From Alphaproteobacteria bacterium (GTDB lineage Bacteria; Pseudomonadota; Alphaproteobacteria; RF32; CAG-239): 64,000 bases of DNA. The translations under genes and the position numbers were made by a program. Positions 2,649 to 57,700 of this stretch are shown piece after piece. The stretch covers positions 399,055-463,054 of the forward strand of contig SUUK01000001.1 of the NCBI GenBank assembly GCA_015062535.1, read 5' to 3'. Each line of letters opens with the position of its first letter. Position 1 is the stretch's first letter. The notes beneath the pieces are model-generated. The model worked only from the letters and a program-made list of their open reading frames with translations. It was not told the origin of the DNA and made no database searches.

Positions 2649-3506
2649 TTATGCAACCTTAAAGTTTGCCATAAGCATAGACAATACTTTATCAAGAGTT
2701 CCCTTTAGGTCTTTACGTTCAACAACAATATCAACCATACCATGCTCTTTCAAATATTCAGCAGTTTGGAAACCTTCTGGTAATTTTTCACGAATAGTTT
2801 GTTCAATAACACGTTTACCCGCAAAACCGATTAAAGAGCCACGTTCTGCAATATGAATATCACCAATCATTGCAAAAGAAGCAGAAACACCACCAGTTGT
2901 AGGGTCAGTAAATATAGAAATATAAGGAAGTCCCTTTTCTTTCAATCTATTAATAGCCGCAGTAGTTCTTGCCATCTGCATTAATGAGAGCATACCTTCT
3001 TGCATACGAGCACCACCAGATGCACTAGCAATAATAAGTGGGCAATTATGCTCATAAGCATATTCAGCCGCCGCAACAATTCCCTCACCAACAGCAGTTC
3101 CCATAGAACCTCCCATAAAAGAGAAATCCATAGCCACAACTACACTATCAATATCACTAACTTTACCCAATCCAACTTTAATAGCATCAAGTCCACCAGT
3201 TTTTTTACGATATACTTTAAGTCTATCAGTATAACGTTGAGTGTCCTTAAACTTCAATGGGTCTTCTTTAACCTGAGGTAAAACCATCTCAGAATAAATA
3301 CCATTATCAAAAAGTTGCTTCAAACGTTTATCAACATAGAGTCTCAAATGATGATTACATTTTGTACATACATACAAAGACTGCTTTAATTCCTTAGAAA
3401 AAAGCATTTGACCACATTCTGGGCATTTTACCCACAAATCATCTGCAATTTCCTTTGGAGTTGTCTTTTTAATCTTTGGTCGAACAATATCTGTCAGCCA
3501 ATTCAT
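2649..3506 (-). CDS. accD: acetyl-CoA carboxylase carboxyltransferase beta subunit
   Basis: N-terminal Zn-ribbon CPECGQ..CTKCNHH, the carboxyltransferase core GGSMG and length (285 aa) match AccD. Confidence 0.9.
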   Translation of the reverse strand: MNWLTDIVRPKIKKTTPKEIADDLWVKCPECGQMLFSKELKQSLYVCTKCNHHLRLYVDKRLKQLFDNGIYSEMVLPQVKEDPLKFKDTQRYTDRLKVYRKKTGGLDAIKVGLGKVSDIDSVVVAMDFSFMGGSMGTAVGEGIVAAAEYAYEHNCPLIIASASGGARMQEGMLSLMQMARTTAAINRLKEKGLPYISIFTDPTTGGVSASFAMIGDIHIAERGSLIGFAGKRVIEQTIREKLPEGFQTAEYLKEHGMVDIVVERKDLKGTLDKVLSMLMANFKVA

Positions 3507-21145: not shown

Positions 21146-21310
21146 ATGACCCTAGCAGAAAATTTAGTAAAAACCATACTGCCGGAATTTTTAACATATT
21201 TAGATAAGTTAGAAAAAGGCGAAATAGTTGAGAAAGAACTGGATATAAATAAAAATCCAAGCATTCATAGCGATGTAAACAAATCGAAAGGAGTCGAAAA
21301 ATGCAGTTAG
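21146..21310 (+). CDS. small phage protein preceding DUF2924/serine recombinase (candidate regulator or directionality factor)
   Basis: RBS GGAGG lies 6 nt upstream of the ATG at 21146. The 54-aa ORF overlaps the next gene by 10 nt. Confidence 0.3.
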   Translation: MTLAENLVKTILPEFLTYLDKLEKGEIVEKELDINKNPSIHSDVNKSKGVEKCS

Positions 21311-21708
21311 CACTAGAAATCGCAAGATTAGAAACACTTCCGCTTACCGAATTACGTCGTTTATGGAAGCATTACTTTAAAACCGATTGTGAAATCCAAA
21401 AAAAGGATTATTACATTTCAAGAATTGCCTATCGAATGCAAGAACTGGAATTAGGCGGTTTGAAAGCATCAACTAAAAAGATGATTGCAGAAATTTGTGA
21501 GTCAACAAAAAAGCATAAATCACTACCGCCATATGGAACACGAATTGTTCGTGAATATAAAGGTGTTGAACACTCAGTCAAAATAGTTATGGGAGGCTTT
21601 GAATATAATGGAATGAAATATAAAAGCCTATCCAGTATCGCAAAATTGATAACCGGTAGCAAAATATCGGGAAACTACTTTTTTGGATTAGAACGATATA
21701 AGGAGTAA
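21301..21708 (+). CDS. DUF2924-family protein (commonly paired with large serine recombinases)
   Basis: C-terminal ..SLSSIAKLITGSKISGNYFFGL is characteristic of the family. The gene is coupled to the downstream recombinase (TAA-ATG at 21708-21711). Confidence 0.5.
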   Translation: MQLALEIARLETLPLTELRRLWKHYFKTDCEIQKKDYYISRIAYRMQELELGGLKASTKKMIAEICESTKKHKSLPPYGTRIVREYKGVEHSVKIVMGGFEYNGMKYKSLSSIAKLITGSKISGNYFFGLERYKE

Positions 21709-21710
21709 AC

Positions 21711-23411
21711 ATGGAACAGAAAATAATCAGATGTGCAGTATACACTCGTAAATCAACAGAAGAAGGGTTAGACAAGGAGTTTAACACTTTAGAAGCTCAA
21801 CGAGAGGCTGGTGAAAACTATATCAAGAGCCAAAAACAACAAGGTTGGGTCTTGCTTCCACAGCATTATGATGATGGTGGTTATAGCGGTGGCACATTAA
21901 AACGTCCTGCCCTTCAAAGACTATTGTCTGATGTGCAAAATGGTAATATTGATATGATTGTTGTTTATAAAATTGACCGCTTAACCCGTTCTTTGCTAGA
22001 CTTTTCACAACTGATTAAAACGCTTGATGCACATAATTGTTCTTTTGTTTCTGTTACACAAAATTTTAACACTTGCGATTCCATGGGTAAACTGACCTTG
22101 AACATTTTATTATCGTTTGCCCAATTTGAACGAGAAGTAAGTGCTGAACGTATCCGAGACAAAATTGCCGCCACCAAGAAAAAAGGTATGTGGACTGGTG
22201 GTAGCGTTCCCCTTGGCTATGATGTTAAAAATAAAAAATTAGTAGTTAATCAGGAAGAAGCAAAAATAGTTCGCTATCTATTTGAAGAATATTTACGTTG
22301 TCGGTCAGAAGTTCAAGTGAGCAGAAACGCCAACGAAATGGGCTATCACTCTAAAGCTCGTAAAGTTCGTAATAGTCAAGGAGAAGTTGCCTTGTCTTTT
22401 AACCATGCGATGATTAATAATTTACTCCGTAATCCTATTTATATTGGAAAGATACCTTACAAAACAGAATTGTTTGATGGACTACACAAAGCGATAATTC
22501 CTATGGATTTGTGGAATCAAGTACAAGAATTAAAAAGGCTTAACCGCCGAGAACGTTTTGCCCCCTCCCGTTCTGTTAAAAATTCATTATTAAAAGGCCT
22601 TGTAGAATGTGAATGTTGCGGCACAATGACACCTACCCGCTGCAAACGAAAAAACAAATATTACGAGTATTATACTTCATCAAAAGCTGTCAAAGAAGGT
22701 CATCATTTATGTAGAACAGGAAGTGTTCCAGCAGGTGAGTTAGATAGATTTGTTTTGGATAAAGTTAGAAATGCATTCAAATCTCCAGAAATTATTCAAG
22801 AATTAGTGCATCAAATTAAACCGTACAAACCTGAGTATGGCGTAAGAGAAGTTTTTGACATTGTGCAGTCGGTTGATAAAGTTTTTGAGCATTTTGAACC
22901 GGCAACATTACAGTCAATCATAAAACAACTTGTTGATAAAGTCATTATACACAAAGGCAAAGTTGTCATTCGATTTAACAGTTTTGGCGTATCGTTGCTT
23001 GATGATAATATTAAATTTCAAAATGAGTTTAATAAAAAAACACTAGAATTTACTTATAATGTTACGTTGGCTCGTAAAAGAGGTCGAGTAAAAATAGTCA
23101 ATCCTCTTCCGTCAGAAACACCTGAAAAAGACGAGATTTTAATAAATGCCGTATCCAAAGCCTTTAAATGGCAAGATTTGTTGGAAAGAACAAATTTAAC
23201 AATTGCAGAATTAGCCCGAAGAGAAAAAATTGACAGGACATATATGGGACGCATTTTAAAACTATGTTCTCTTGCTCCCGAAATTATTAATGCAATTATA
23301 GAGGGAAAACAACCACGATTGCTTAATTTACAAGTCTTTACCAGAAACCAAATCCCTCTTTTATGGAGTGAACAACTTAAAAAATATGGTTTTGTTTACG
23401 ATTCGCACTGA
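21711..23411 (+). CDS. large serine recombinase (phage integrase, resolvase/invertase N-terminal domain + recombinase domain + zinc ribbon)
   Basis: N-terminus VYTRKSTEEG..QREA has the catalytic Ser/Arg context. It is followed by a recombinase domain and Cys clusters (CECCG..C) over 566 aa. Confidence 0.9.
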   Translation: MEQKIIRCAVYTRKSTEEGLDKEFNTLEAQREAGENYIKSQKQQGWVLLPQHYDDGGYSGGTLKRPALQRLLSDVQNGNIDMIVVYKIDRLTRSLLDFSQLIKTLDAHNCSFVSVTQNFNTCDSMGKLTLNILLSFAQFEREVSAERIRDKIAATKKKGMWTGGSVPLGYDVKNKKLVVNQEEAKIVRYLFEEYLRCRSEVQVSRNANEMGYHSKARKVRNSQGEVALSFNHAMINNLLRNPIYIGKIPYKTELFDGLHKAIIPMDLWNQVQELKRLNRRERFAPSRSVKNSLLKGLVECECCGTMTPTRCKRKNKYYEYYTSSKAVKEGHHLCRTGSVPAGELDRFVLDKVRNAFKSPEIIQELVHQIKPYKPEYGVREVFDIVQSVDKVFEHFEPATLQSIIKQLVDKVIIHKGKVVIRFNSFGVSLLDDNIKFQNEFNKKTLEFTYNVTLARKRGRVKIVNPLPSETPEKDEILINAVSKAFKWQDLLERTNLTIAELARREKIDRTYMGRILKLCSLAPEIINAIIEGKQPRLLNLQVFTRNQIPLLWSEQLKKYGFVYDSH

Positions 23412-23423
23412 TTTTTTATAAAA

Positions 23424-23476
23424 TTGACATAACCGTATGTATTGGATTCCATACGGTTATATGCGTTTGACATAAC
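23424..23476. promoter_or_regulatory. operator-like inverted repeat flanked by direct TTGACATAAC repeats
   Basis: AACCGTATG-TATTGGATTC-CATACGGTT is a 9-bp perfect inverted repeat. TTGACATAAC occurs at 23424 and 23466. Confidence 0.4.
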
Positions 23477-23593
23477 ATATTATTTTTATTTAATTTTCCT
23501 ACGGAAAAAATTATTTAATCCTTTCGTTTATATAGCCGAAAGCATATCATTTTTTTGTAACTATCCCCCAAAATTTTTACGAAAGGATGATAT

Positions 23594-24460: not shown

Positions 24461-25138
24461 ATGGATAGAAAAACGTCATTCGTGTTTTATCCTGCGGAGT
24501 TCCTTGCTTCTGTGTATAATTTTACAAATTGTGAATGTGCGACATTAATTAAGGCTCTTTGTGAGTACGCTCTGTACGGAAAAATCACAAAAAATTTATC
24601 GGAAAAAGTTCAAGACCGTTTTAATTTTTTGCAAGCAGGCATTGATGAAAACAATCGCAAATATTTTGAAACCTGCGAAAAACGTAAGGCTGGCGGCTCT
24701 AAAGGTGGTCGTCCAAAACGAGAAAAAGAAAACCTTAAGGTTTCTGAACCACCACCAAATTCTGCCAACGAAAAACCTGATAAGGAGAAGGATAAGGATA
24801 AAGGAGATGAAGAGTCCGGATATGTTTTTATTAAAAATAATAAAAATAAAGGGGCTGAAAATGTGGATAAGTCAGGATATGTCGGTGCTCCGAGCGTTGA
24901 AGAAGTGGCTGAATACTGCAAACGAAGTGGATATACAATTGACCCTGTAGCCTTCGTTCGGTGGAACGAAGAACGTGGTTGGATGAACGGCAAGAAATAC
25001 ATTGCCGTTGACTGGCGTAAAGCCGTCCGGAAATGGTTTTGCAAGGAAAACGGTCTCGCTTACTCGGAAATGGAGACTATGACGGACATCTGTCATGATG
25101 TGCTTAGCAAAGTAAAGGTGGTGCCGGATGAAAGCTAA
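24461..25138 (+). CDS. hypothetical phage protein, possibly replication-associated (DUF1376-like N-terminus; tentative)
   Basis: N-terminal FVFYPAEFLASV...LIKALCEYALYG is followed by a basic GGSKGGRPKREKE linker and an acidic stretch. Confidence 0.3.
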   Translation: MDRKTSFVFYPAEFLASVYNFTNCECATLIKALCEYALYGKITKNLSEKVQDRFNFLQAGIDENNRKYFETCEKRKAGGSKGGRPKREKENLKVSEPPPNSANEKPDKEKDKDKGDEESGYVFIKNNKNKGAENVDKSGYVGAPSVEEVAEYCKRSGYTIDPVAFVRWNEERGWMNGKKYIAVDWRKAVRKWFCKENGLAYSEMETMTDICHDVLSKVKVVPDES

Positions 25139-25556
25139 AACCATCGCAGAAATCAAAGCAAACTTGGAAACAGCCGCCTATGTGGATCGGTTGTTGCCGC
25201 CTGTCCGTTCTCCCAAATATCGGTGTTTGATGCCCGAGATTATATACACGCCGCAAGAAATGGCCCTGATGGACCGCCGACCGGTTCGACCCCGTCCAAC
25301 TCAGGCACAGGTCAGTTTATGGGAGACTGTCACTTTAGAATGGATACCACTTCTAGAAATTGATGAACGCCGCCTTGTTTGGAAACGGGCTAACCGAATT
25401 CCTTGGAAAATTTTATGCCGAGAATTTGGCATTTGCAGAACAAGGTTAATGCTCAAGTATGATAAAGCCATTGTAAAGATTGAGTTTTACCTAAAAGGAA
25501 AGGAAAAATGCAGAGTGCAAAAAATGAGTGGACACTTTCAAAAGAAATCGCTATAA
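25128..25556 (+). CDS. hypothetical phage protein with HTH-like C-terminus
   Basis: 142-aa ORF containing RIPWKILCREFGICRTRLMLKY. Confidence 0.3.
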   Translation: MKAKTIAEIKANLETAAYVDRLLPPVRSPKYRCLMPEIIYTPQEMALMDRRPVRPRPTQAQVSLWETVTLEWIPLLEIDERRLVWKRANRIPWKILCREFGICRTRLMLKYDKAIVKIEFYLKGKEKCRVQKMSGHFQKKSL

Positions 25557-25673: not shown

Positions 25674-26675
25674 ATGAAAAAAACAGCAGAGTTCGTTTCG
25701 CTCGGACATCCGGACAAAACGGCCGACTATATTTCCAGTTATATCCTTGACCGTATGATCGCCCAAGACCCGGACGTAAAATACGCCGTTGAGGTTATGG
25801 TCAAAGACAACACCGTCGTGTTAGGAGGCGAAATCAAAGGAAAAGTTGTCCTATCAGATGTCAAAGAGTTCGTTAAAAATGCCCTGAGAGATATCGGTTA
25901 TGATGAAAAATACGCCGAAGTTTGGGGCAAAAATGCCATAGATGTTCGTAAAATCGAAGTCATCAACCTCATCGGTCAGCAGTCAGCAGACATCAACCAA
26001 GGCGTAGTAGCCAATGGTTGGGGCGACCAAGGTGTATTTGTCGGTTACGCTTGTAAAGGTGAAGGCTTGATTAACCGAGAGCTTTATCTCGCTCGTACCC
26101 TTAACAATGCCCTTTATATTAAGGCTCGTCAAAGCAAAAACCTTGGAATTGACATTAAAACACAGATTACCTTAAACGACTACGGCCGAATTGAAACGGC
26201 TGTCGTTGCCATTCCGATGAAAGAACCGGAAGATTTAACAGATTTTATCATTGAAACACTCGGAGAAAAGCCCGACAACATCATTGTTAACGGCACCGGA
26301 AGTTTCAAATTGCATTCCTCCATCGCAGACTGCGGCATTACCGGTCGCAAATTGGCCTGCGATTTTTACTCTACTGCCTGTCCGATCGGTGGTGGCTCGC
26401 CTTGGACTAAAGACGGCAGCAAGGCAGATGTAACCCTGAACATCTATGCTCGCCGTTTAGCTCTTCGTTATTTGGAAGATAACGACGAATGCTTTGTCTA
26501 TCTCTCCTCCTGCATCGGTCGAGCCGAACTGCCCAGTGCAGTTGTTAAAACAATCAAGTCAGGTGTCGAGACAAATACCGCCATCTCGGTGGCCAAAACC
26601 CCAATTGAACTGGCCGAAGAATTGGATTTAACAAAGCCGGTTTTCGCCCGTTTATGTCGAAATGGTTTGATATAA
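25674..26675 (+). CDS. divergent, shortened S-adenosylmethionine synthetase (MetK-like) encoded by phage
   Basis: Aligns with bacterial MetK across its length. Matching segments include SLGHPDKTADYIS (GHPDK), SADINQGV, GWGDQGVFVGYA (GAGDQG), DIKTQIT, ADCGITGRKL and IGGGSPWTKDGSKADVT. The catalytic His, Asp and Lys residues are conserved. At 333 aa it has lost part of the C-terminal domain. Confidence 0.75.
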   Translation: MKKTAEFVSLGHPDKTADYISSYILDRMIAQDPDVKYAVEVMVKDNTVVLGGEIKGKVVLSDVKEFVKNALRDIGYDEKYAEVWGKNAIDVRKIEVINLIGQQSADINQGVVANGWGDQGVFVGYACKGEGLINRELYLARTLNNALYIKARQSKNLGIDIKTQITLNDYGRIETAVVAIPMKEPEDLTDFIIETLGEKPDNIIVNGTGSFKLHSSIADCGITGRKLACDFYSTACPIGGGSPWTKDGSKADVTLNIYARRLALRYLEDNDECFVYLSSCIGRAELPSAVVKTIKSGVETNTAISVAKTPIELAEELDLTKPVFARLCRNGLI

Positions 26676-26693
26676 TCCCCCGAATTTGCCGGA

Positions 26694-27074
26694 ACATATC
26701 ATACTAACGACATATAATCCCGACTTTTGGGCAGAATTGCCGGATAGTATCATACTATGCGAACATATAACATTGTATGTCGGTGTTGCCTCACATATAA
26801 GACATATATATGGGCTATTCTGACGGAATATCGCCCTATATTGCACATATATCGGACATATATTCGCATAGATTTGCATATATGTTCGCTATGATAAACC
26901 ATAGCCCGACGGTCCCGTCACAATAGGCATATAGTATCATACTATCAAGACGGTATCGAGGTTTTGAGCCGGATTTGACGGATAGTATCATACTATCAAC
27001 ATACTCTCTCGGGTTTTGGCCCGTTTGGGTGGTTAGTATCATACTAACGAGATACTATCTCGGACAGCCCTGAG
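26694..27074. repeat. array of 17-bp palindromes GATAGTATCATACTATC interleaved with ACATATAT repeats
   Basis: Full palindromes at 26743-26759, 26931-26946, 26991-27007 and 27042-27058; partial copies at 26694-26709 and 27061-27073. ACATATA(T/A) occurs four times between 26792 and 26890, enclosed by the GGGCTAT/ATAGCCC inverted repeat (26811/26901). Confidence 0.7.
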
Positions 27075-27260
27075 GCGCAACGGGTCCTTCCTGGCCTCTG
27101 TTCGTATGCGGGGACGCAAGCCGCCCGATTTTTCTAGCGAAACACCTTTTTCTTTACTGGTCGCCCATACTCGGAAACCCTTGTGTTTATTGGGGTTTGA
27201 GGGTGTCTTGTTTTTTCTGACTGGTCACTTGTAAATCTGGCTGGTCACTTTGCATTTTTT

Positions 27261-28529
27261 ATGGAGAATTACATGGAATTTAATGAAAAATATCCTACCG
27301 AAAAGCTCATCCCATATGCCCGAAACTCTCGGACACATAACGATGAACAAATCGCCCAAATTGTGGCAAGCATTAAGGAGTTCGGTTTCACGAACCCAAT
27401 CCTGATTGGAGATGATGATGTTATAATCGCCGGTCATGGTCGCCTTATGGCCGCACAACGTCTTGGCATGACAGAGGTTCCGGTCATCAGGTTGCCTCAC
27501 TTAACCGAAACACAACGCCGGGCCTTGGTCATTGCCGACAATAAGATTGCTCTGAATGCCGGATGGGATGAAGAGATGCTCCACCTTGAAATGGAAGAAC
27601 TCTCGGAATTGAACTTTGATTTGAACCTGCTTGGGTTTAACCCTGATGAGTTGAATGAAATCCAATTATTCGGTGAGGAAAAGTCGTCCGGTAACACAGA
27701 TGATGACGAAGTTCCGGAAGCACCTGAGGAAGCCATCACAAAACGTGGCGACATTTGGCAACTGGGCCGACACCGTCTGATTTGTGGCGATACCACCATG
27801 ATAGATGACGTTAAAAAGCTAATGCAGGACGAAGTCGCCGATATGATTTTCACAGACCCTCCATATAATGTGAACTATGGTTCCACCATGAAAGACAGCA
27901 TACGCTATCATGCCGGTTCACTCGGTGGCCGAAAGATTATGAACGATAACCTTGGCGAAGGTTTTGCTCAGTTCCTGACGGATAGCTTATCCAATATGAT
28001 GATGTATTGTAAAGGTGCGGCCTATGTATGCATGAGTTCATCTGAACTGCACACCCTTTATAACTCGTTCATCAATGCCGGTGGCAAATGGTCGACCTTC
28101 ATCATTTGGAAAAAGAACACCTTTACCCTTGGCCGAGCTGACTATCAGCGACAATATGAGCCTATTCTTTACGGTTGGAATGCCGAACAAAAACATCATT
28201 GGTGTGGTGACCGGGATCAGGCAGACGTTTGGGAATACAATAAACCGGTCAAAAACGACTTACACCCGACAATGAAGCCGGTTGAACTGGTGGAAAGAGC
28301 TATAAATAACAGCTCTAAAATCGGGAATATCGTTTTAGATGGTTTCGGAGGCTCCGGCTCGACGCTGATTGCGTGCGAAAAGACGGGTCGTTCTGCCCGA
28401 TTAATTGAGCTAGATCCGAAGTTTTGTGACGTCATCATCAGGCGTTGGGAGGAATATACCGGTAACAAAGCCCAACTTATTGAAAATAAAGCAGAAATAA
28501 TCGAAAATGATGCAGAATTAACTGGATAA
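27261..28529 (+). CDS. ParB-like nuclease domain fused to beta-class N6A/N4C DNA methyltransferase
   Basis: N-terminal ParB/Srx fold (GHGRLMAAQRLG) is followed by a methyltransferase with DPPYN (motif IV) preceding LDGFGGSGST (motif I). Length is 422 aa. Confidence 0.85.
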   Translation: MENYMEFNEKYPTEKLIPYARNSRTHNDEQIAQIVASIKEFGFTNPILIGDDDVIIAGHGRLMAAQRLGMTEVPVIRLPHLTETQRRALVIADNKIALNAGWDEEMLHLEMEELSELNFDLNLLGFNPDELNEIQLFGEEKSSGNTDDDEVPEAPEEAITKRGDIWQLGRHRLICGDTTMIDDVKKLMQDEVADMIFTDPPYNVNYGSTMKDSIRYHAGSLGGRKIMNDNLGEGFAQFLTDSLSNMMMYCKGAAYVCMSSSELHTLYNSFINAGGKWSTFIIWKKNTFTLGRADYQRQYEPILYGWNAEQKHHWCGDRDQADVWEYNKPVKNDLHPTMKPVELVERAINNSSKIGNIVLDGFGGSGSTLIACEKTGRSARLIELDPKFCDVIIRRWEEYTGNKAQLIENKAEIIENDAELTG

Positions 28530-33543: not shown

Positions 33544-33773
33544 ATAAAGAAACACTTAAAATACGATTGGCCGAAGCTGAAGAAGCCTACCATAAACTGC
33601 TCATCGGAGCCAAGGAAGTTTCGGTTAATGTCGGCAATTTCGGTTCGGTAACTTATAACCAAACCTCCCGAGCGGCTTTGGAAAGTTATATCTCAAGCCT
33701 AAAATCACAAATTGCGGCAGCCGAAGGTAAAACAACATCTTCTCGCAGACGAATGATAAAGGTGGTATTTTAG
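33534..33773 (+). CDS. head-tail joining protein, gpW-like
   Basis: 79 aa, overlaps the terL stop, and lies between A and B as in lambda. Confidence 0.55.
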   Translation: MVIDKETLKIRLAEAEEAYHKLLIGAKEVSVNVGNFGSVTYNQTSRAALESYISSLKSQIAAAEGKTTSSRRRMIKVVF

Positions 33774-33837
33774 GCATTATTTTCCTGAATATCATCAATT
33801 TAGCAATAGCTTATTTTGATGAGATTCAAGGAATTTT

Positions 33838-33948
33838 ATGCAGATAATATTGAATATATTAACAAGAAAAATTTTGAAGAAAATCGGCAAAATAAGCATT
33901 GTCTACGATGTTGCAAAAAATATTCCTGATGTCGTTGTTTGTTTTTAA
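33838..33948 (+). CDS. AT-rich mini-ORF (36 aa, hydrophobic/basic peptide) in W-B intergenic cargo slot
   Basis: MQIILNILTRKILKKIGKISIVYDVAKNIPDVVVCF. About 27% GC against about 48% for the flanking genes. Confidence 0.2.
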   Translation: MQIILNILTRKILKKIGKISIVYDVAKNIPDVVVCF

Positions 33949-34038
33949 TGATTAATCAAATCATTTACAATCAAACGCCTAATCAAAAACATTTTTTGCT
34001 AACACCAAATTTGATTATATTTAGGAGAATAATGCCTC

Positions 34039-35513: not shown

Positions 35514-36671
35514 CTATAAAGGTTCAACATCCGAAGATAATAGGTCTGTATATTTTTGATAAGTATATATTTGTCCCCATTTTTTTTCGGAATTATTTAC
35601 CAAAATCCCTAAGTCAATTAAATGATTTAAGGATTTTATGACGGTTGGTTTTGTACTTCCTATCATATTGATAATTTCAGAAACGGTAAGCATAGGTTTC
35701 TTTTGAAATGCTGAAAACACTTTCAAAGCAGATTCTGATGCTCGACCGAGAGTTTTTATCTGCTCAACATCTGCTGAAAAGATATTTTGAATATTTATAA
35801 GTGTTTTTTTAGCATCATTTGCCGTTTCAATAACACCTTCTAAAAAGAATTTAATCCAATTTTCCCAGTCTCCATCTTTACGAACACCATTGAGAGCATC
35901 ATAATACAGGGTTCTATTCTTTTTGAAGAATAAACTCAGGTATAAGAAAGGAGAATCCAGCACACCTTTTACACATAAGAAAAATGTAATTAAAAGACGA
36001 CCAAGTCTTCCATTTCCATCAAGAAATGGGTGAATTGTTTCGAACTGTACATGGATAAGAGCAGCTTTGATTAAATTTGGAATATTATCTTCATCATTCA
36101 TAAAAATTTCCAAATCTCCTAAAACAGACATGAGTTTTTCAGGAGGAACAGGCACAAATCGAGCATTACCAGGTCGTGTTCCACCAATCCAATTTTGGGA
36201 TGAACGAAATTCTCCAGGAAGTTTTGTTTTTCCCCTAGAGTTAGTAAGAAGTATTTTATGAATTTCACGAATAAGACGTAACGACAACGGAAATCCTTCT
36301 TTGATGCGTTGCAACCCATGATTTAATGCTGCCACATATGAAGATACTTCTGATGCATCTGCAACAGGAACACCTTGTGTTTGTTCTGATTCATATCTTA
36401 AAAGATCATCCAACGTTGATTGTGTCCCCTCAATTTGTGATGATAATACAGCTTCCTTACGGACATACATATAATTCAGAACAGAAGGATCTATTGTTGC
36501 TTCAACAACACCGTTAAGTTCTCCGATGGATTGATTAGCTTTTTCTAATAAAACAGATACCTCTGATAAATCAATATCAGGTTTTGGTGGTAATGGATTA
36601 GGAATAAAGGCTTGATATGTTTCAGATGTTACTGAGCATTTCACTAAAGTTCCTTGAATATCACGTTTCAT
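35514..36671 (-). CDS. Fic-family protein (class II, N-terminal inhibitory helix), cargo gene
   Basis: Canonical FIC motif HPFLDGNGRLGRLL, inhibitory motif SSQIEGT ([ST]xxxE[GN]) N-terminal, and a C-terminal winged-helix region. It is on the opposite strand between portal and prohead protease and has lower GC. Confidence 0.9.
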   Translation of the reverse strand: MKRDIQGTLVKCSVTSETYQAFIPNPLPPKPDIDLSEVSVLLEKANQSIGELNGVVEATIDPSVLNYMYVRKEAVLSSQIEGTQSTLDDLLRYESEQTQGVPVADASEVSSYVAALNHGLQRIKEGFPLSLRLIREIHKILLTNSRGKTKLPGEFRSSQNWIGGTRPGNARFVPVPPEKLMSVLGDLEIFMNDEDNIPNLIKAALIHVQFETIHPFLDGNGRLGRLLITFFLCVKGVLDSPFLYLSLFFKKNRTLYYDALNGVRKDGDWENWIKFFLEGVIETANDAKKTLINIQNIFSADVEQIKTLGRASESALKVFSAFQKKPMLTVSEIINMIGSTKPTVIKSLNHLIDLGILVNNSEKKWGQIYTYQKYTDLLSSDVEPL

Positions 36672-55430: not shown

Positions 55431-56384
55431 TTACAACAGGTCATTTAATAAATTCATACATTTAATTTTTTGTTGCATATTGGCTCGGCCATATACATTT
55501 AATGTGAAAGATACATTTTTATGACCCAAAATTTCGGATAGAGATTTAACATCAAACTCCGGGATTTCTATGGCTCGAACTGCGAAAGTATGCCGAATTT
55601 CATGAAACTTAACACTACGCAGTTTGTTTTTTTTGAGGAAACGAGCAAAAAACTGTCTGTATGTTCTTGGCTCTGTTGGTTTGGTTTTCCCTGTTAAAAA
55701 ATATTGATTAGGGTTATCAGAATAATATTTCTTTATTATATTTATCAAAAGCGATGGAAGAGGAATAGTTCGGCACGAACTTGCTGTTTTAGGTGCTCCA
55801 ATGTAAACATAAGAAGTTCCTTTTACTTTATCATAAATTCGCTGAACAGTTCTTTGAATTGTTATGGTCTTATCAATAATAGAGATGTCTCGCATTTGTA
55901 AACCACACAGCTCACCAATCCGAACGCCAGTAAATAACGCAACTAAAATACCTGCAGTACGGCGGTTCATTTTCATGTAGATGGACTGTATAAGAGCCAA
56001 TTCTTCATCTTTTGATAAAGAAATCACTTTTTTTATTCCCAAATCTTTAGGGTATTCAATTAGGTCCCAATTTAGCATAGGAATAACTTGTTCTTTATAT
56101 GCAAAAATAAGGCATAAGCGTAAGACAAGTATAATATCTCGAATTGTTTTTACTGTTAAGCCTCCTTTTTTATCAAGCCTACCTTCATTATAAAGCGTAT
56201 TGATATAACATTGTATATCAGCTTCGGTGATGCTTAATATTTTCTTTTTACCCATTGATGGAATCAAATGGTTTTCAGAAATTAAAACAAAGTTAGCATA
56301 AGTCGATGGTGTAATCATCGGTTGCTTTTGTGTTAACCATGTTTTTACTAAAGTTTTAAATTGGGTATTTTGAGTTATTTTCAT
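55431..56384 (-). CDS. tyrosine site-specific recombinase (candidate hsdS invertase)
   Basis: 317 aa with the HEIRHTFAVRAIE (HxxR) box and a C-terminal catalytic Tyr (NVYGRA). It is adjacent to the inverted hsdS cassettes and is AT-rich like the host. Confidence 0.85.
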   Translation of the reverse strand: MKITQNTQFKTLVKTWLTQKQPMITPSTYANFVLISENHLIPSMGKKKILSITEADIQCYINTLYNEGRLDKKGGLTVKTIRDIILVLRLCLIFAYKEQVIPMLNWDLIEYPKDLGIKKVISLSKDEELALIQSIYMKMNRRTAGILVALFTGVRIGELCGLQMRDISIIDKTITIQRTVQRIYDKVKGTSYVYIGAPKTASSCRTIPLPSLLINIIKKYYSDNPNQYFLTGKTKPTEPRTYRQFFARFLKKNKLRSVKFHEIRHTFAVRAIEIPEFDVKSLSEILGHKNVSFTLNVYGRANMQQKIKCMNLLNDLL

Positions 56385-56489
56385 TTTATTTATCTCCTTT
56401 GAAAAATGTTAATACCGGAGATTATTTTGCACGAAATAGCCGAAAATTAGGATTTTGGGAGCAAAAATATTAACCGCAACAGCCATGAA

Positions 56490-57700
56490 AGAGGGAAAAA
56501 TGCTCCTCCTTTAATGGTCTTGAGCCGTCTCTTCGTTTTAGAAATTTTGTAGATGATTGGGAAGAGAGTAAACTTTCATCTTTCTTTAAAAAATGCTTGG
56601 AAAAAAATAAAAATGGTCTCGTTGATAATGTTATTTGCAATTCTGCAAAAAATGGATTAATGCCTCAGCGAGATTTCTTTGACAAAGATATTGCCAACAC
56701 AGAAAATACAAACGGCTATTATATTATCCAAGAAAATGATTTTGTATATAATCCTCGTAAATCCAACGAAGCACCATATGGACCAATAAGCATATATAAA
56801 TACAAAGAAAAAGGAATTGTTTCACCTCTTTATCTTTGTTTTAGAGCCACAACAGAAATTCACCCTAGATATTTTGAAATGTATTTTAAATCTTCTGTTT
56901 GGCATAATTACATTTACTTTGCAGGAGACAGCGGTGCTCGTCATGACAGGGTAAGCATTAAAGATGATGTTTTTTTTGAAATGCCAATAAACATCCCATC
57001 TCTTCCTGAGCAACAAAAAATAGCCAACTTTCTCTCACTCGTTGACCAACGTATCGAAAAACAGCGACAACTGGTCGAAGCCCTAAAGAAGTATAAAAGA
57101 GGGTTGTTTTTGAAGCTTTATAATGAAGCTGATAAAAACATAATATTGTTTAAAAATATCTATGATATTGCATCTGAAGGTGGCACTCCTTCAACATTAG
57201 ATCCTGAGAATTACGAGAATGGAAAACTTCCATTTATTAAAATAGATGACCTAAATCAGCATTATTTAACTGCCGCAAAATATTTTATTACTGAAAAGGG
57301 ATTAAAAAAATCTAGTGCATGGATTGTTCCTGAAAATAGTATCATTTATTCAAATGGGGCAACTATTGGAGCTTGTTCTATTAATAAAATGCCTGTAACC
57401 ACAAAACAAGGAATTTTAGGTATTGTACCAAAGAGTAATTTTTCTGTGGAATTTCTTTACTTCTATTTTACATCAAGCCTTTTTAAGGAAAAAATAAGAG
57501 CAATCACAACTAAAGGAACCATGGATTGTGCTTATTTAAAAGATATAAATAACATAAAAATAAATATTCCCAATTTCATAATTCAACAAAAAATAGCAAA
57601 AGTTATGGTGAATTTTGAAAATTTAATAGAACGAACCGAGTTCGCACTTATATCCTTACAAAATATTAAAAAAGCACTTTTACAGAAAATGTTTATATAA
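56490..57700 (+). CDS. silent hsdS cassette A' (two TRDs; no ATG start, frame opens at 56490)
   Basis: HsdS-like with an N-terminal NGLEPSLRF motif, central EQQKIANFLSLVDQRIEKQRQLVEALKKYKRGL and C-terminal LLQKMFI. The first in-frame start is a TTG at 56597. Confidence 0.75.

Follow-up and report, generated by a model that had tools for sequence, protein, structure and literature searches.

A non-coding array of palindromic sites at the early/late gene boundary of a gut alphaproteobacterial prophage

The palindrome block and its position

The window analyzed here, a stretch of 64,000 nucleotides from an alphaproteobacterial genome, contains a prophage of about 34 kb (roughly 21.3 to 54.5 kb), which has a GC content of 43% compared with 32% for the host DNA. 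Within this prophage, a gap of 585 bp separates a gene for an S-adenosylmethionine (SAM)-synthetase-like protein from a gene that encodes a ParB-type N-terminal domain fused to a DNA methyltransferase (ParB-MT). The first 400 bp of the gap form a block of non-coding repeats, the sole repeat-dense non-coding region of the prophage. The block lies exactly at the boundary between the early and the late genes, where all genes are on one strand. Near-identical copies of the region were found in gut and rumen metagenome assemblies and in metagenome-assembled genomes (MAGs) labelled Alphaproteobacteria. The block, its parts and its two flanking genes are listed below; genes named in this work are on the plus strand unless a strand is given.

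25674..26675, plus strand: SAM-synthetase-like gene, upstream flank and final gene of the early operon
26676-27075 (400 bp), no strand: whole non-coding repeat block, from the stop of the SAM-synthetase-like gene to a conserved, putatively cos-like element
26680..26782, plus strand: left pair of 51-bp units (U0, U1), from direct-repeat analysis
26692..26708, no strand: site 0, a half-degenerate copy, GAACATATCATACTAAC (13-bp core at 26694), right half intact and left half diverged
26743..26759, no strand: site 1, GATAGTATCATACTATG, symmetric at 16 of 17 positions, exact 13-bp core
26708..26889, no strand: seven ACATATA and three GCGAACATAT-type motifs, most of the cluster between sites 1 and 2
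26918..27070, plus strand: right trio of 51-bp units (U2-U4), from direct-repeat analysis; one unit fewer in locus L375
26930..26946, no strand: site 2, TATAGTATCATACTATC, symmetric at 16 of 17 positions, exact core
26981..26997, no strand: site 3, GATAGTATCATACTATC, a perfect 17-bp odd-centred palindrome
27032..27048, no strand: site 4, GTTAGTATCATACTAAC, a perfect 17-bp palindrome of variant sequence
27050..27062, no strand: short 13-bp palindrome GAGATACTATCTC, which has the half-site ATACTATC in common with the sites
27261..28529, plus strand: ParB-MT gene (ParB_N domain fused to an N6/N4 DNA methyltransferase), downstream flank

The block is built from five 51-bp direct-repeat units, each containing one dyad-symmetric site with a TAGTATCATACTA core, and these units are arranged as two to the left and three to the right of a central repeat segment. 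Exact copies of the 13-bp core start at 26745, 26932, 26983 and 27034, and no other copy occurs in the window. When up to two mismatches were allowed on both strands, nine matches were found against 1.4 expected; neither the four exact copies nor the nine matches were reached in any of 100 shuffles. Overall, the units are 64 to 73% alike, whereas the four exact cores are identical at 13 of 13 positions; the symmetry of sites 1 and 2 is broken at one outer base each. Counting the half-degenerate copy, the sites follow one another at distances of 51, 187, 51 and 51 bp.

An initial annotation of the window had described four full copies of a perfect odd-centred palindrome, at 26743, 26931, 26991 and 27042 and 51 to 60 bp apart, together with partial copies at 26694 and 27061. 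Four copies are present, with 17-mers starting at 26743, 26930, 26981 and 27032; only 26981-26997 equals the palindrome that was quoted, 27032-27048 is a different perfect palindrome, and the other two are imperfect. The spacing has to be corrected to the distances given above. The partial copy at 26694 is a half-degenerate site with its right half kept, and the one at 27061 is in fact the separate 13-bp palindrome. The annotation had seen this structure nowhere else in the window; the core is indeed confined to this position, and the prophage has no second non-coding repeat cluster.

The segment between the two groups of units is about 170 bp long and packed with ACATATA and GCGAACATAT repeats. 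ACATATA is found at 26710, 26763, 26793, 26802, 26845 and 26856 on the plus strand and at 26879 on the minus strand, so that 7 of the 17 copies in the window lie within 180 bp (26710-26885). Where four such repeats had been reported between the second and third palindromes, there are seven, most of them between sites 1 and 2. The GGGCTAT (26811) and ATAGCCC (26901) sequences said to close the segment are both present, but a 7-bp inverted pair within 400 bp is expected at chance level. The segment had also been called AT-rich, a description that we cannot uphold: its AT content is 60.5%, compared with 58% for the prophage, and it ranks 879 of 3305 windows, leaving no distinctive unwinding element. 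Among 100-bp windows ordered by stability, the least stable one of the block comes 375th of 6620.

The block is under purifying selection

We compared the block with its counterparts in five relatives (L247, L235, L202, L255 and L375). Divergence from the window ranged from 0.018 to 0.052, whereas the synonymous divergence (dS) for the same five relatives was 0.08 to 0.16 in the SAM-synthetase-like gene and 0.13 to 0.20 in the ParB-MT gene. The block thus diverges 3 to 8 times more slowly than the synonymous sites of its flanking genes, and the 400 bp are therefore functional DNA kept by purifying selection over their whole length. The most conserved part is the core stretch of the ACATATA cluster (26785-26903). 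Among close relatives, substitutions are too few for a meaningful comparison of cores with spacers (Fisher p = 0.5).

The symmetry of each site continues through its center, and the cores have stayed identical in units that have otherwise drifted, which together point to a dimeric, sequence-specific protein acting on double-stranded DNA. From this architecture we infer that the block is a multi-site platform for a dimeric DNA-binding protein, and the constraint on it supports the broader idea behind the initial annotation, a functional array of protein-binding sites.

Distribution of the block and of similar repeats

In addition to the window and its identical copies L201, L203 and L204, the block is carried by loci L202, L235, L247, L255, L258, L288 and L375; it is missing from L003-L015, L533 and L536. 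Across the loci compared, it is an optional, lineage-specific feature of one narrow gut alphaproteobacterial prophage lineage. Within this lineage it varies by whole units: L258 has lost the segment between sites 1 and 2 and with it most of the ACATATA cluster, and L375 has one 51-bp unit fewer. Patches of substitutions between units resemble gene conversion. In L003-L015 and L533, the slot corresponding to 26676-27080 of the window contains RhuM/Fic genes, a SocA-Panacea pair, two-gene cassettes of unknown function, or a methyltransferase/radical-SAM/NUDIX cluster.

Two carriers of the block possess a second non-coding cassette of 260 bp directly upstream of it (L255, about 2824-3085; L375, 2501-2774; both on the minus strand of the locus). 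This cassette is made of tandem 44-bp units, each with a 35-bp palindrome, TCTGAGTATCTGAA-N7-TTCAGATGCTCAGA, that has 14-bp arms. The cassettes of L255 and L375 are 98.7% identical to each other and unrelated to the block palindrome.

Searches beyond the lineage were largely unproductive. A scan of IMG/VR with the single palindrome (15-mer) returned one-copy chance matches only, a scan of the same database for paired palindromes returned nothing, and neither did a BLAST search of the region against phage and plasmid records. In the literature, we found nothing relevant on the core sequence, on DUF6291 (a protein family encoded upstream of the block) or on ParB-MT with a SAM synthetase. Scans of genomes and metagenomes with paired 11-mers mostly recovered unrelated repeat families, namely Tn7-like ends, Bacteroidales HU-HIG arrays and various tandem repeats, and we rejected these as homologues because their spacing, termini and neighboring genes differ.

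The Tn7-like matches came from Gammaproteobacteria (L205-L324), in which AATAAAGTATCATACT follows a TGT terminus, with three copies 20 bp apart in some loci and a spacing of 55/66 bp in others, which is the layout of Tn7-like right and left ends (for example, L211, L212 and L222 versus L209, L217 and L244). A Tn7-like end with TnsB sites was rejected for the array in the window, whose sites are 51 bp apart and which has neither a TGT terminus nor a nearby transposase. In Bacteroides and Prevotella (L221 3731-3775, L229, L270 5710-5798, L289 and L302), three to six tandem 22-bp repeats with AGTATCATACT lie 7 to 100 bp upstream of HU-HIG (HU-like) genes, with several copies per genome.

A much closer match was found in locus L292 (7300-7720), part of a Pseudomonadota MAG (JAZKGZ010000016). 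It contains six (T)AGTATCATRCTATG-N4-CTCTAA sites at distances of 172, 52, 51, 51 and 51 bp, directly downstream of a small serine resolvase gene; on the other side is an unannotated open reading frame (ORF) that runs off the end of the locus, has no Pfam match and is possibly Bro-N-like, as judged by eye only. The L292 element has a P4-type integrase and shares only a generic resolvase fold with the prophage described here. The two arrays have the same core, the same period and the same layout of one distant copy plus a tandem run, but the L292 sites are asymmetric, are followed by a conserved CTCTAA and belong to a different host element. The features that the two arrays have in common suggest a portable array, which may be recognized by a host-encoded or not-yet-seen protein.

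The block as a possible accessory replication origin

Two sets of dyad-symmetric sites around a repeat-rich center are the layout of described phage and satellite origins, such as lambda ori and the origin of staphylococcal pathogenicity islands (SaPI ori). Five phased palindromes and seven ACATATA motifs amount to a repeated-site cluster like that of iteron origins, the only one in the prophage, and the early operon, with its DUF6291 gene, has the block at its 3' end. Our best reading, to which we give a probability of roughly one in three (0.35), is that this phage lineage uses the block as an accessory origin or maintenance locus. Several dimers would assemble on the phased sites into a higher-order complex, which the flanking arrays would recruit and organize, and the central repeat segment would be the place where replication proteins act. 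That such a complex serves as an accessory origin or maintenance locus is the weakest step of this scheme. The candidate replication proteins are encoded 1 to 2 kb upstream:

24461-25138, plus strand: DUF6291 gene, candidate replication organizer
24461..25556, plus strand: DUF6291 and DUF6362 gene pair, candidate replication organizer and partner

DUF6291 is plausibly a replication organizer, because one homologue is fused to a DnaD-type domain (PF07261), and would be the putative replication protein that the initial annotation had placed upstream. In an AlphaFold model, DUF6291 consists of two helical domains and a disordered linker, and this model has no significant fold match in the PDB. 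PDB sequence searches with DUF6291, a sigma-like protein encoded upstream of it and DUF3489 from the late side were empty.

In the DUF6291 genes of sister phages, the linker region contains four to six AAGCAA hexamers at exact 11/22/33-bp spacing (L258 2768-2850 on the minus strand, L015 1218-1256, L007 1080-1159, and L005, L006 and L008-L014). The hexamers are read in all three frames, which argues for a signal at the DNA level. This chain was found nowhere else in 80 loci of 2.6 to 4 kb and in 0 of 80 shuffles. DUF6291 proteins of this type (L005-L015, L258) are about 53 to 56% identical to that of the window, with L015 at 40%. DUF6291 genes of the window type contain zero AAGCAA, and the prophage has no phased hexamer chain anywhere. 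A complementary distribution of block and chain looked strong, because seven loci with window-type DUF6291 have the block and no internal chain, while nine loci of the other type have the chain and no block. It is broken by L533 and L536, which are of the window type and have neither; L258, of the other type, has a partial block.

Several observations count against an origin. The DUF6291 proteins of L536 and L533 are 77 to 79% identical to that of the window, with near-identical N-domains, yet these loci contain no block, no internal iterons and no repeat cluster in 8 to 10 kb, and the block is thus optional even for window-type DUF6291. Conversely, L258 keeps its truncated array despite an AAGCAA-type DUF6291. 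Among about 95 members of the wider phage group, there is no comparable repeat cluster upstream of the conserved core of the cos-like element, and the slot between the SAM-synthetase-like gene and that core is empty or filled with accessory genes in relatives. We see no cognate DNA-binding protein in the phage, the helical phasing is weak and unconvincing for either motif, and the central segment is neither AT-rich nor unusually unstable, whereas an iteron origin should have an adjacent AT-rich, easily melted segment. The proposal of iterons plus an unwinding element, which the initial annotation had put forward for this region, therefore survives as the best architectural fit but without its unwinding element and with L533 and L536 as counterexamples. 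We infer the origin reading from architecture and position, not from distribution among relatives.

Alternative functions of the block

An operator or silencer array is a weaker candidate than an accessory origin, though still the strongest of the alternatives. A phage- or host-encoded dimeric repressor would coat the phased palindromes, and the resulting roadblock or loop, placed between the early operon and the late side (cos-like element, ParB-MT, terminase), would prevent read-through in the lysogen or time late expression. Perfect palindromes are typical of sites for dimeric helix-turn-helix (HTH) repressors, and the location of the block fits. No plus-strand terminator is predicted between the SAM-synthetase-like gene and ParB-MT; selection on the block is likewise compatible with an operator. 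However, promoter-like matches between 25400 and 27500 are at chance level (four versus 4.1 expected), with two inside the block at 9/12 positions, no repressor or HTH gene flanks the block, and relatives with the same gene order do without it. Five sites at 51 bp together with a second motif family would also be unusual for operators, and the constraint extends to the spacers and the central segment.

A centromere-like array of the F sopC type, in which 43-bp units carry one palindrome each, would be bound by a partition or tethering protein (ParB-MT or another) and would stabilize an episomal form of the phage. We regard this as improbable, even though the 51-bp units have a similar architecture, a ParB_N-domain gene is adjacent and the very similar L292 array adjoins a small serine resolvase gene, a typical plasmid-maintenance neighbor. 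The ParB-type N-terminal domain that had been assigned to the downstream gene is real: Pfam identifies ParB_N (residues 24-76) and N6_N4_Mtase. The protein resembles ParB, Noc and Spo0J only over this N-terminal domain (about residues 10-117), with PDB-chain matches ending at residue 95-117 and a TIGR00180 match covering profile positions 21-97 of 186, and an HTH_ParB domain was not detected in the Pfam, PDB-chain or TIGR00180 comparisons. The initial annotation had put the array forward as a parS-like candidate next to ParB-MT and had listed, among its refuting observations, the lack of any comparable repeat in related ParB-MT phages. Among the best 80 ParB-MT loci in IMG/VR, 15 of them at 80 to 83% identity, none contains the core within two mismatches, the 13 closest relatives inspected show no palindrome array of this kind ahead of the gene, and L536 is also without the block. 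No ParA family member was found among 38 window ORFs scanned, and the prophage is integrated in the chromosome beside a large serine recombinase gene. The block does offer palindromes of about the 16 bp seen in parS (two perfect and two near-perfect 17-bp palindromes), but their sequence is, to our knowledge, unrelated to canonical parS. Since close relatives lack the block and ParB-MT has only the N-terminal domain of ParB, we rejected parS of the adjacent ParB-MT; a sopC-like array with some other protein as its binder keeps a low probability.

Only marginally less probable is a decoy, in which the block (with the second cassette in L255 and L375) is non-coding cargo whose arrays copy the binding sites of a DNA-binding protein of a competing mobile element or of the host and titrate that protein, such as the replication initiator, repressor or defense sensor of a competing phage, plasmid or host defense system. 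Such a role would account for the location in a slot that relatives fill with accessory genes (RhuM/Fic, SocA-type and others), for the apparent lack of a cognate phage protein, for the selection acting on the block and for the near-identical array of the unrelated element L292. The variable number of units and the stacking of a second, unrelated palindrome cassette beside the block are also in line with a decoy. On the other hand, no target phage or protein is evident, and the constraint is spread over the full length of the block and is not limited to the sites.

We consider it very unlikely that the block gives rise to a structured non-coding RNA or to a small peptide. Constraint over the full length and three short ORFs that are open in all relatives might suggest so, and the block folds better than shuffled sequence (z = -4.2 on the plus strand and -4.4 on the minus strand). 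This excess is equal on both strands, and Rfam 15 covariance models gave zero matches at E ≤ 1 over 26676-27260, which speaks against a strand-specific RNA; in addition, the symmetry of the sites crosses the would-be hairpin loops, where an RNA would not need it. We found no credible ORF in 26676-27075, since all substitutions are non-synonymous in the open frames and the other frames gain stops in relatives. Parts of the block are, moreover, deleted in L258 and L375.

Least likely of all is a neutral minisatellite or mobile-element relic made uniform by unequal crossing-over, because the gain and loss of units, the conversion-like patches and the occurrence of the same 11-mer in unrelated repeat families are outweighed by an orthologous divergence 3 to 8 times below the synonymous rate and by identical cores within unit flanks that differ by about 30%. 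A small share of probability, about that of the centromere-like array, falls to explanations outside this list.

A separate, conserved element precedes the ParB-MT gene

Alignment with the closest ParB-MT phages in IMG/VR (80 to 83% protein identity) showed that the last ~190 bp of the gap (27080-27260) are conserved there, whereas the 400-bp palindrome part is missing. The gap therefore comprises two elements, and the CTGGTCAC repeats belong to the second one, not to the palindrome array. This element has the following features:

27082..27139, plus strand: conserved core GGGTCCTTCC-N12-GTATGCGGGG..GCCGC..TCTAGCG, starting 7 bp downstream of the block
27157..27248, plus strand: three CTGGTCRC direct repeats, at 27157 (CTGGTCGC) and at 27221 and 27241 (CTGGTCAC)

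The direct repeats at 27221 and 27241 had been noted before, and the copy at 27157 is a third; what does not hold is their assignment to the palindrome region, as they belong to an element that is widely conserved among phages. Its general form is GGGTCCTTCC-N8-14-GTATGCGGGG..TCTAGCG, followed by phage-specific direct repeats of 7 to 8 bp, which are CTGGTCRC in the window group, GGTTGTCA in L002/L003, and GGTTCGCA, GGTTTGCA, GGTTGCCA or GGTTACCA in others. The conserved core is present in L001-L015, L060, L072 and L411-L530, with more than 120 IMG/VR contigs among the matches listed. It also occurs in Rhodobacter phage RcKai (OP009272, 41456-41511), about 135 bp before the end of the record, which is arbitrarily linearized, and upstream of its ParB-like gene 1. 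When 40 diverse copies of the core were analyzed with RNAalifold, three pairs were predicted, with no covariation and no conserved structure; we consequently rejected an RNA structure and take the core to be a DNA site.

The direct repeats do not track ParB-MT, as L003 has different repeats at 82.5% ParB-MT identity. They change with the small terminase subunit (TerS) where the large subunit (TerL) is similar, both between the window and L002 (TerL 77%, TerS 45%) and between L508 and L412 (TerL 82%, TerS 37%), but identical repeat motifs are also found with TerS proteins that are only 30 to 35% identical, and the co-variation of TerS with the repeats is no more than suggestive. Two contigs, L002 and L069, start at the conserved core; in a test of contig ends, only two or three contigs in all ended there. 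The 27082-27260 element is probably a cos-like packaging site or, failing that, a late regulatory site.

Other features of the prophage

The remaining early-side genes are as follows:

21301-23411, plus strand: DUF2924 and large serine recombinase, left end of the prophage, early side
Early side, upstream of DUF6291, plus strand: sigma-like protein, then a 96-amino-acid protein

The late side continues after ParB-MT with small genes, DUF3489 (minus strand), TerS, a GpA-type TerL, a lambda-type portal, and head and tail genes. The SAM-synthetase-like gene adjoins the gene for the SAM-dependent DNA methyltransferase (25674-28529), and this pair is kept in L003 and L005-L015 wherever the upstream gene is covered; such a pairing suggests that the methylation module of the phage is self-supplied.

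A 29-nucleotide inverted repeat with two copies of TTGACATAAC lies between the integrase gene and the gene for the sigma-like protein (23411-23478) and is a candidate early promoter or operator. Downstream of TerL and before the portal gene, a 30-nucleotide inverted repeat (87% complementary) encloses an AT-rich spacer of 206 bp (33772-34037); it could be a small element that was inserted there, or a hairpin with a regulatory role. On the opposite strand, a Fic_N/Fic gene (35514-36671, minus strand) is inserted between the genes for the portal and the head protease; its C-terminal HTH matches are weak and sub-threshold, and the least stable DNA of the prophage flanks the gene. Just beyond the prophage (55431-57700), a tyrosine recombinase gene adjoins a gene for a type I restriction specificity subunit (HsdS).

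Discussion

Phage annotation ignores non-coding DNA, and here 400 bp without a gene evolve several times more slowly than silent sites. The block occupies the place of accessory or defense-type genes in related phages, beside the putative packaging site. Should it turn out to be an optional origin, a maintenance site or a decoy, it would show that phage "cargo" may consist of cis-acting DNA alone. Three elements can now be told apart, namely the palindrome array, the cos-like element upstream of ParB-MT genes and the frame-independent AAGCAA iterons in DUF6291 genes, and together they provide a testable handle on replication and packaging in an uncharacterized group of alphaproteobacterial phages.

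Several known systems resemble these elements in part. The cos-like element shares with lambda cos (cosN plus cosB) an invariant core followed by phage-specific short direct repeats, a position upstream of a late operon that contains the terminase genes, a phage with a GpA-type large terminase and a lambda-type portal, and repeats that change when TerS is swapped at similar TerL. It differs in that the first downstream gene encodes ParB-MT rather than TerS, identical motifs accompany distant TerS proteins and few contigs end at the core. The AAGCAA hexamers within the DUF6291 genes of sister phages are reminiscent of the origin inside lambda gene O.

The array has features of F sopC and other ParB-parS centromeres, in the form of tandem direct-repeat units of about 40 to 50 bp with one palindromic site each and an adjacent ParB-domain gene. 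Unlike those systems, it comprises only five units in two groups, lies in an integrated replicon without ParA, adjoins a ParB-type protein with no detectable HTH and does not travel with that gene. In the engineered lactococcal phage-encoded resistance (Per), cloned phage origins act by titration; a decoy, if true, would be the natural counterpart of such a system.

In comparison with lambda ori, inside gene O, and SaPI ori, downstream of rep, the block lacks a distinct AT-rich unwinding segment, has 51-bp instead of ~20-bp spacing, has two genes (DUF6362 and SAM-synthetase-like) between it and the DUF6291 gene and is missing from relatives with a nearly identical putative initiator. The likeness, one of sequence layout, consists of repeated or dyad-symmetric sites on both sides of a repeat-rich center, in a non-coding region that is near replication genes and under constraint.

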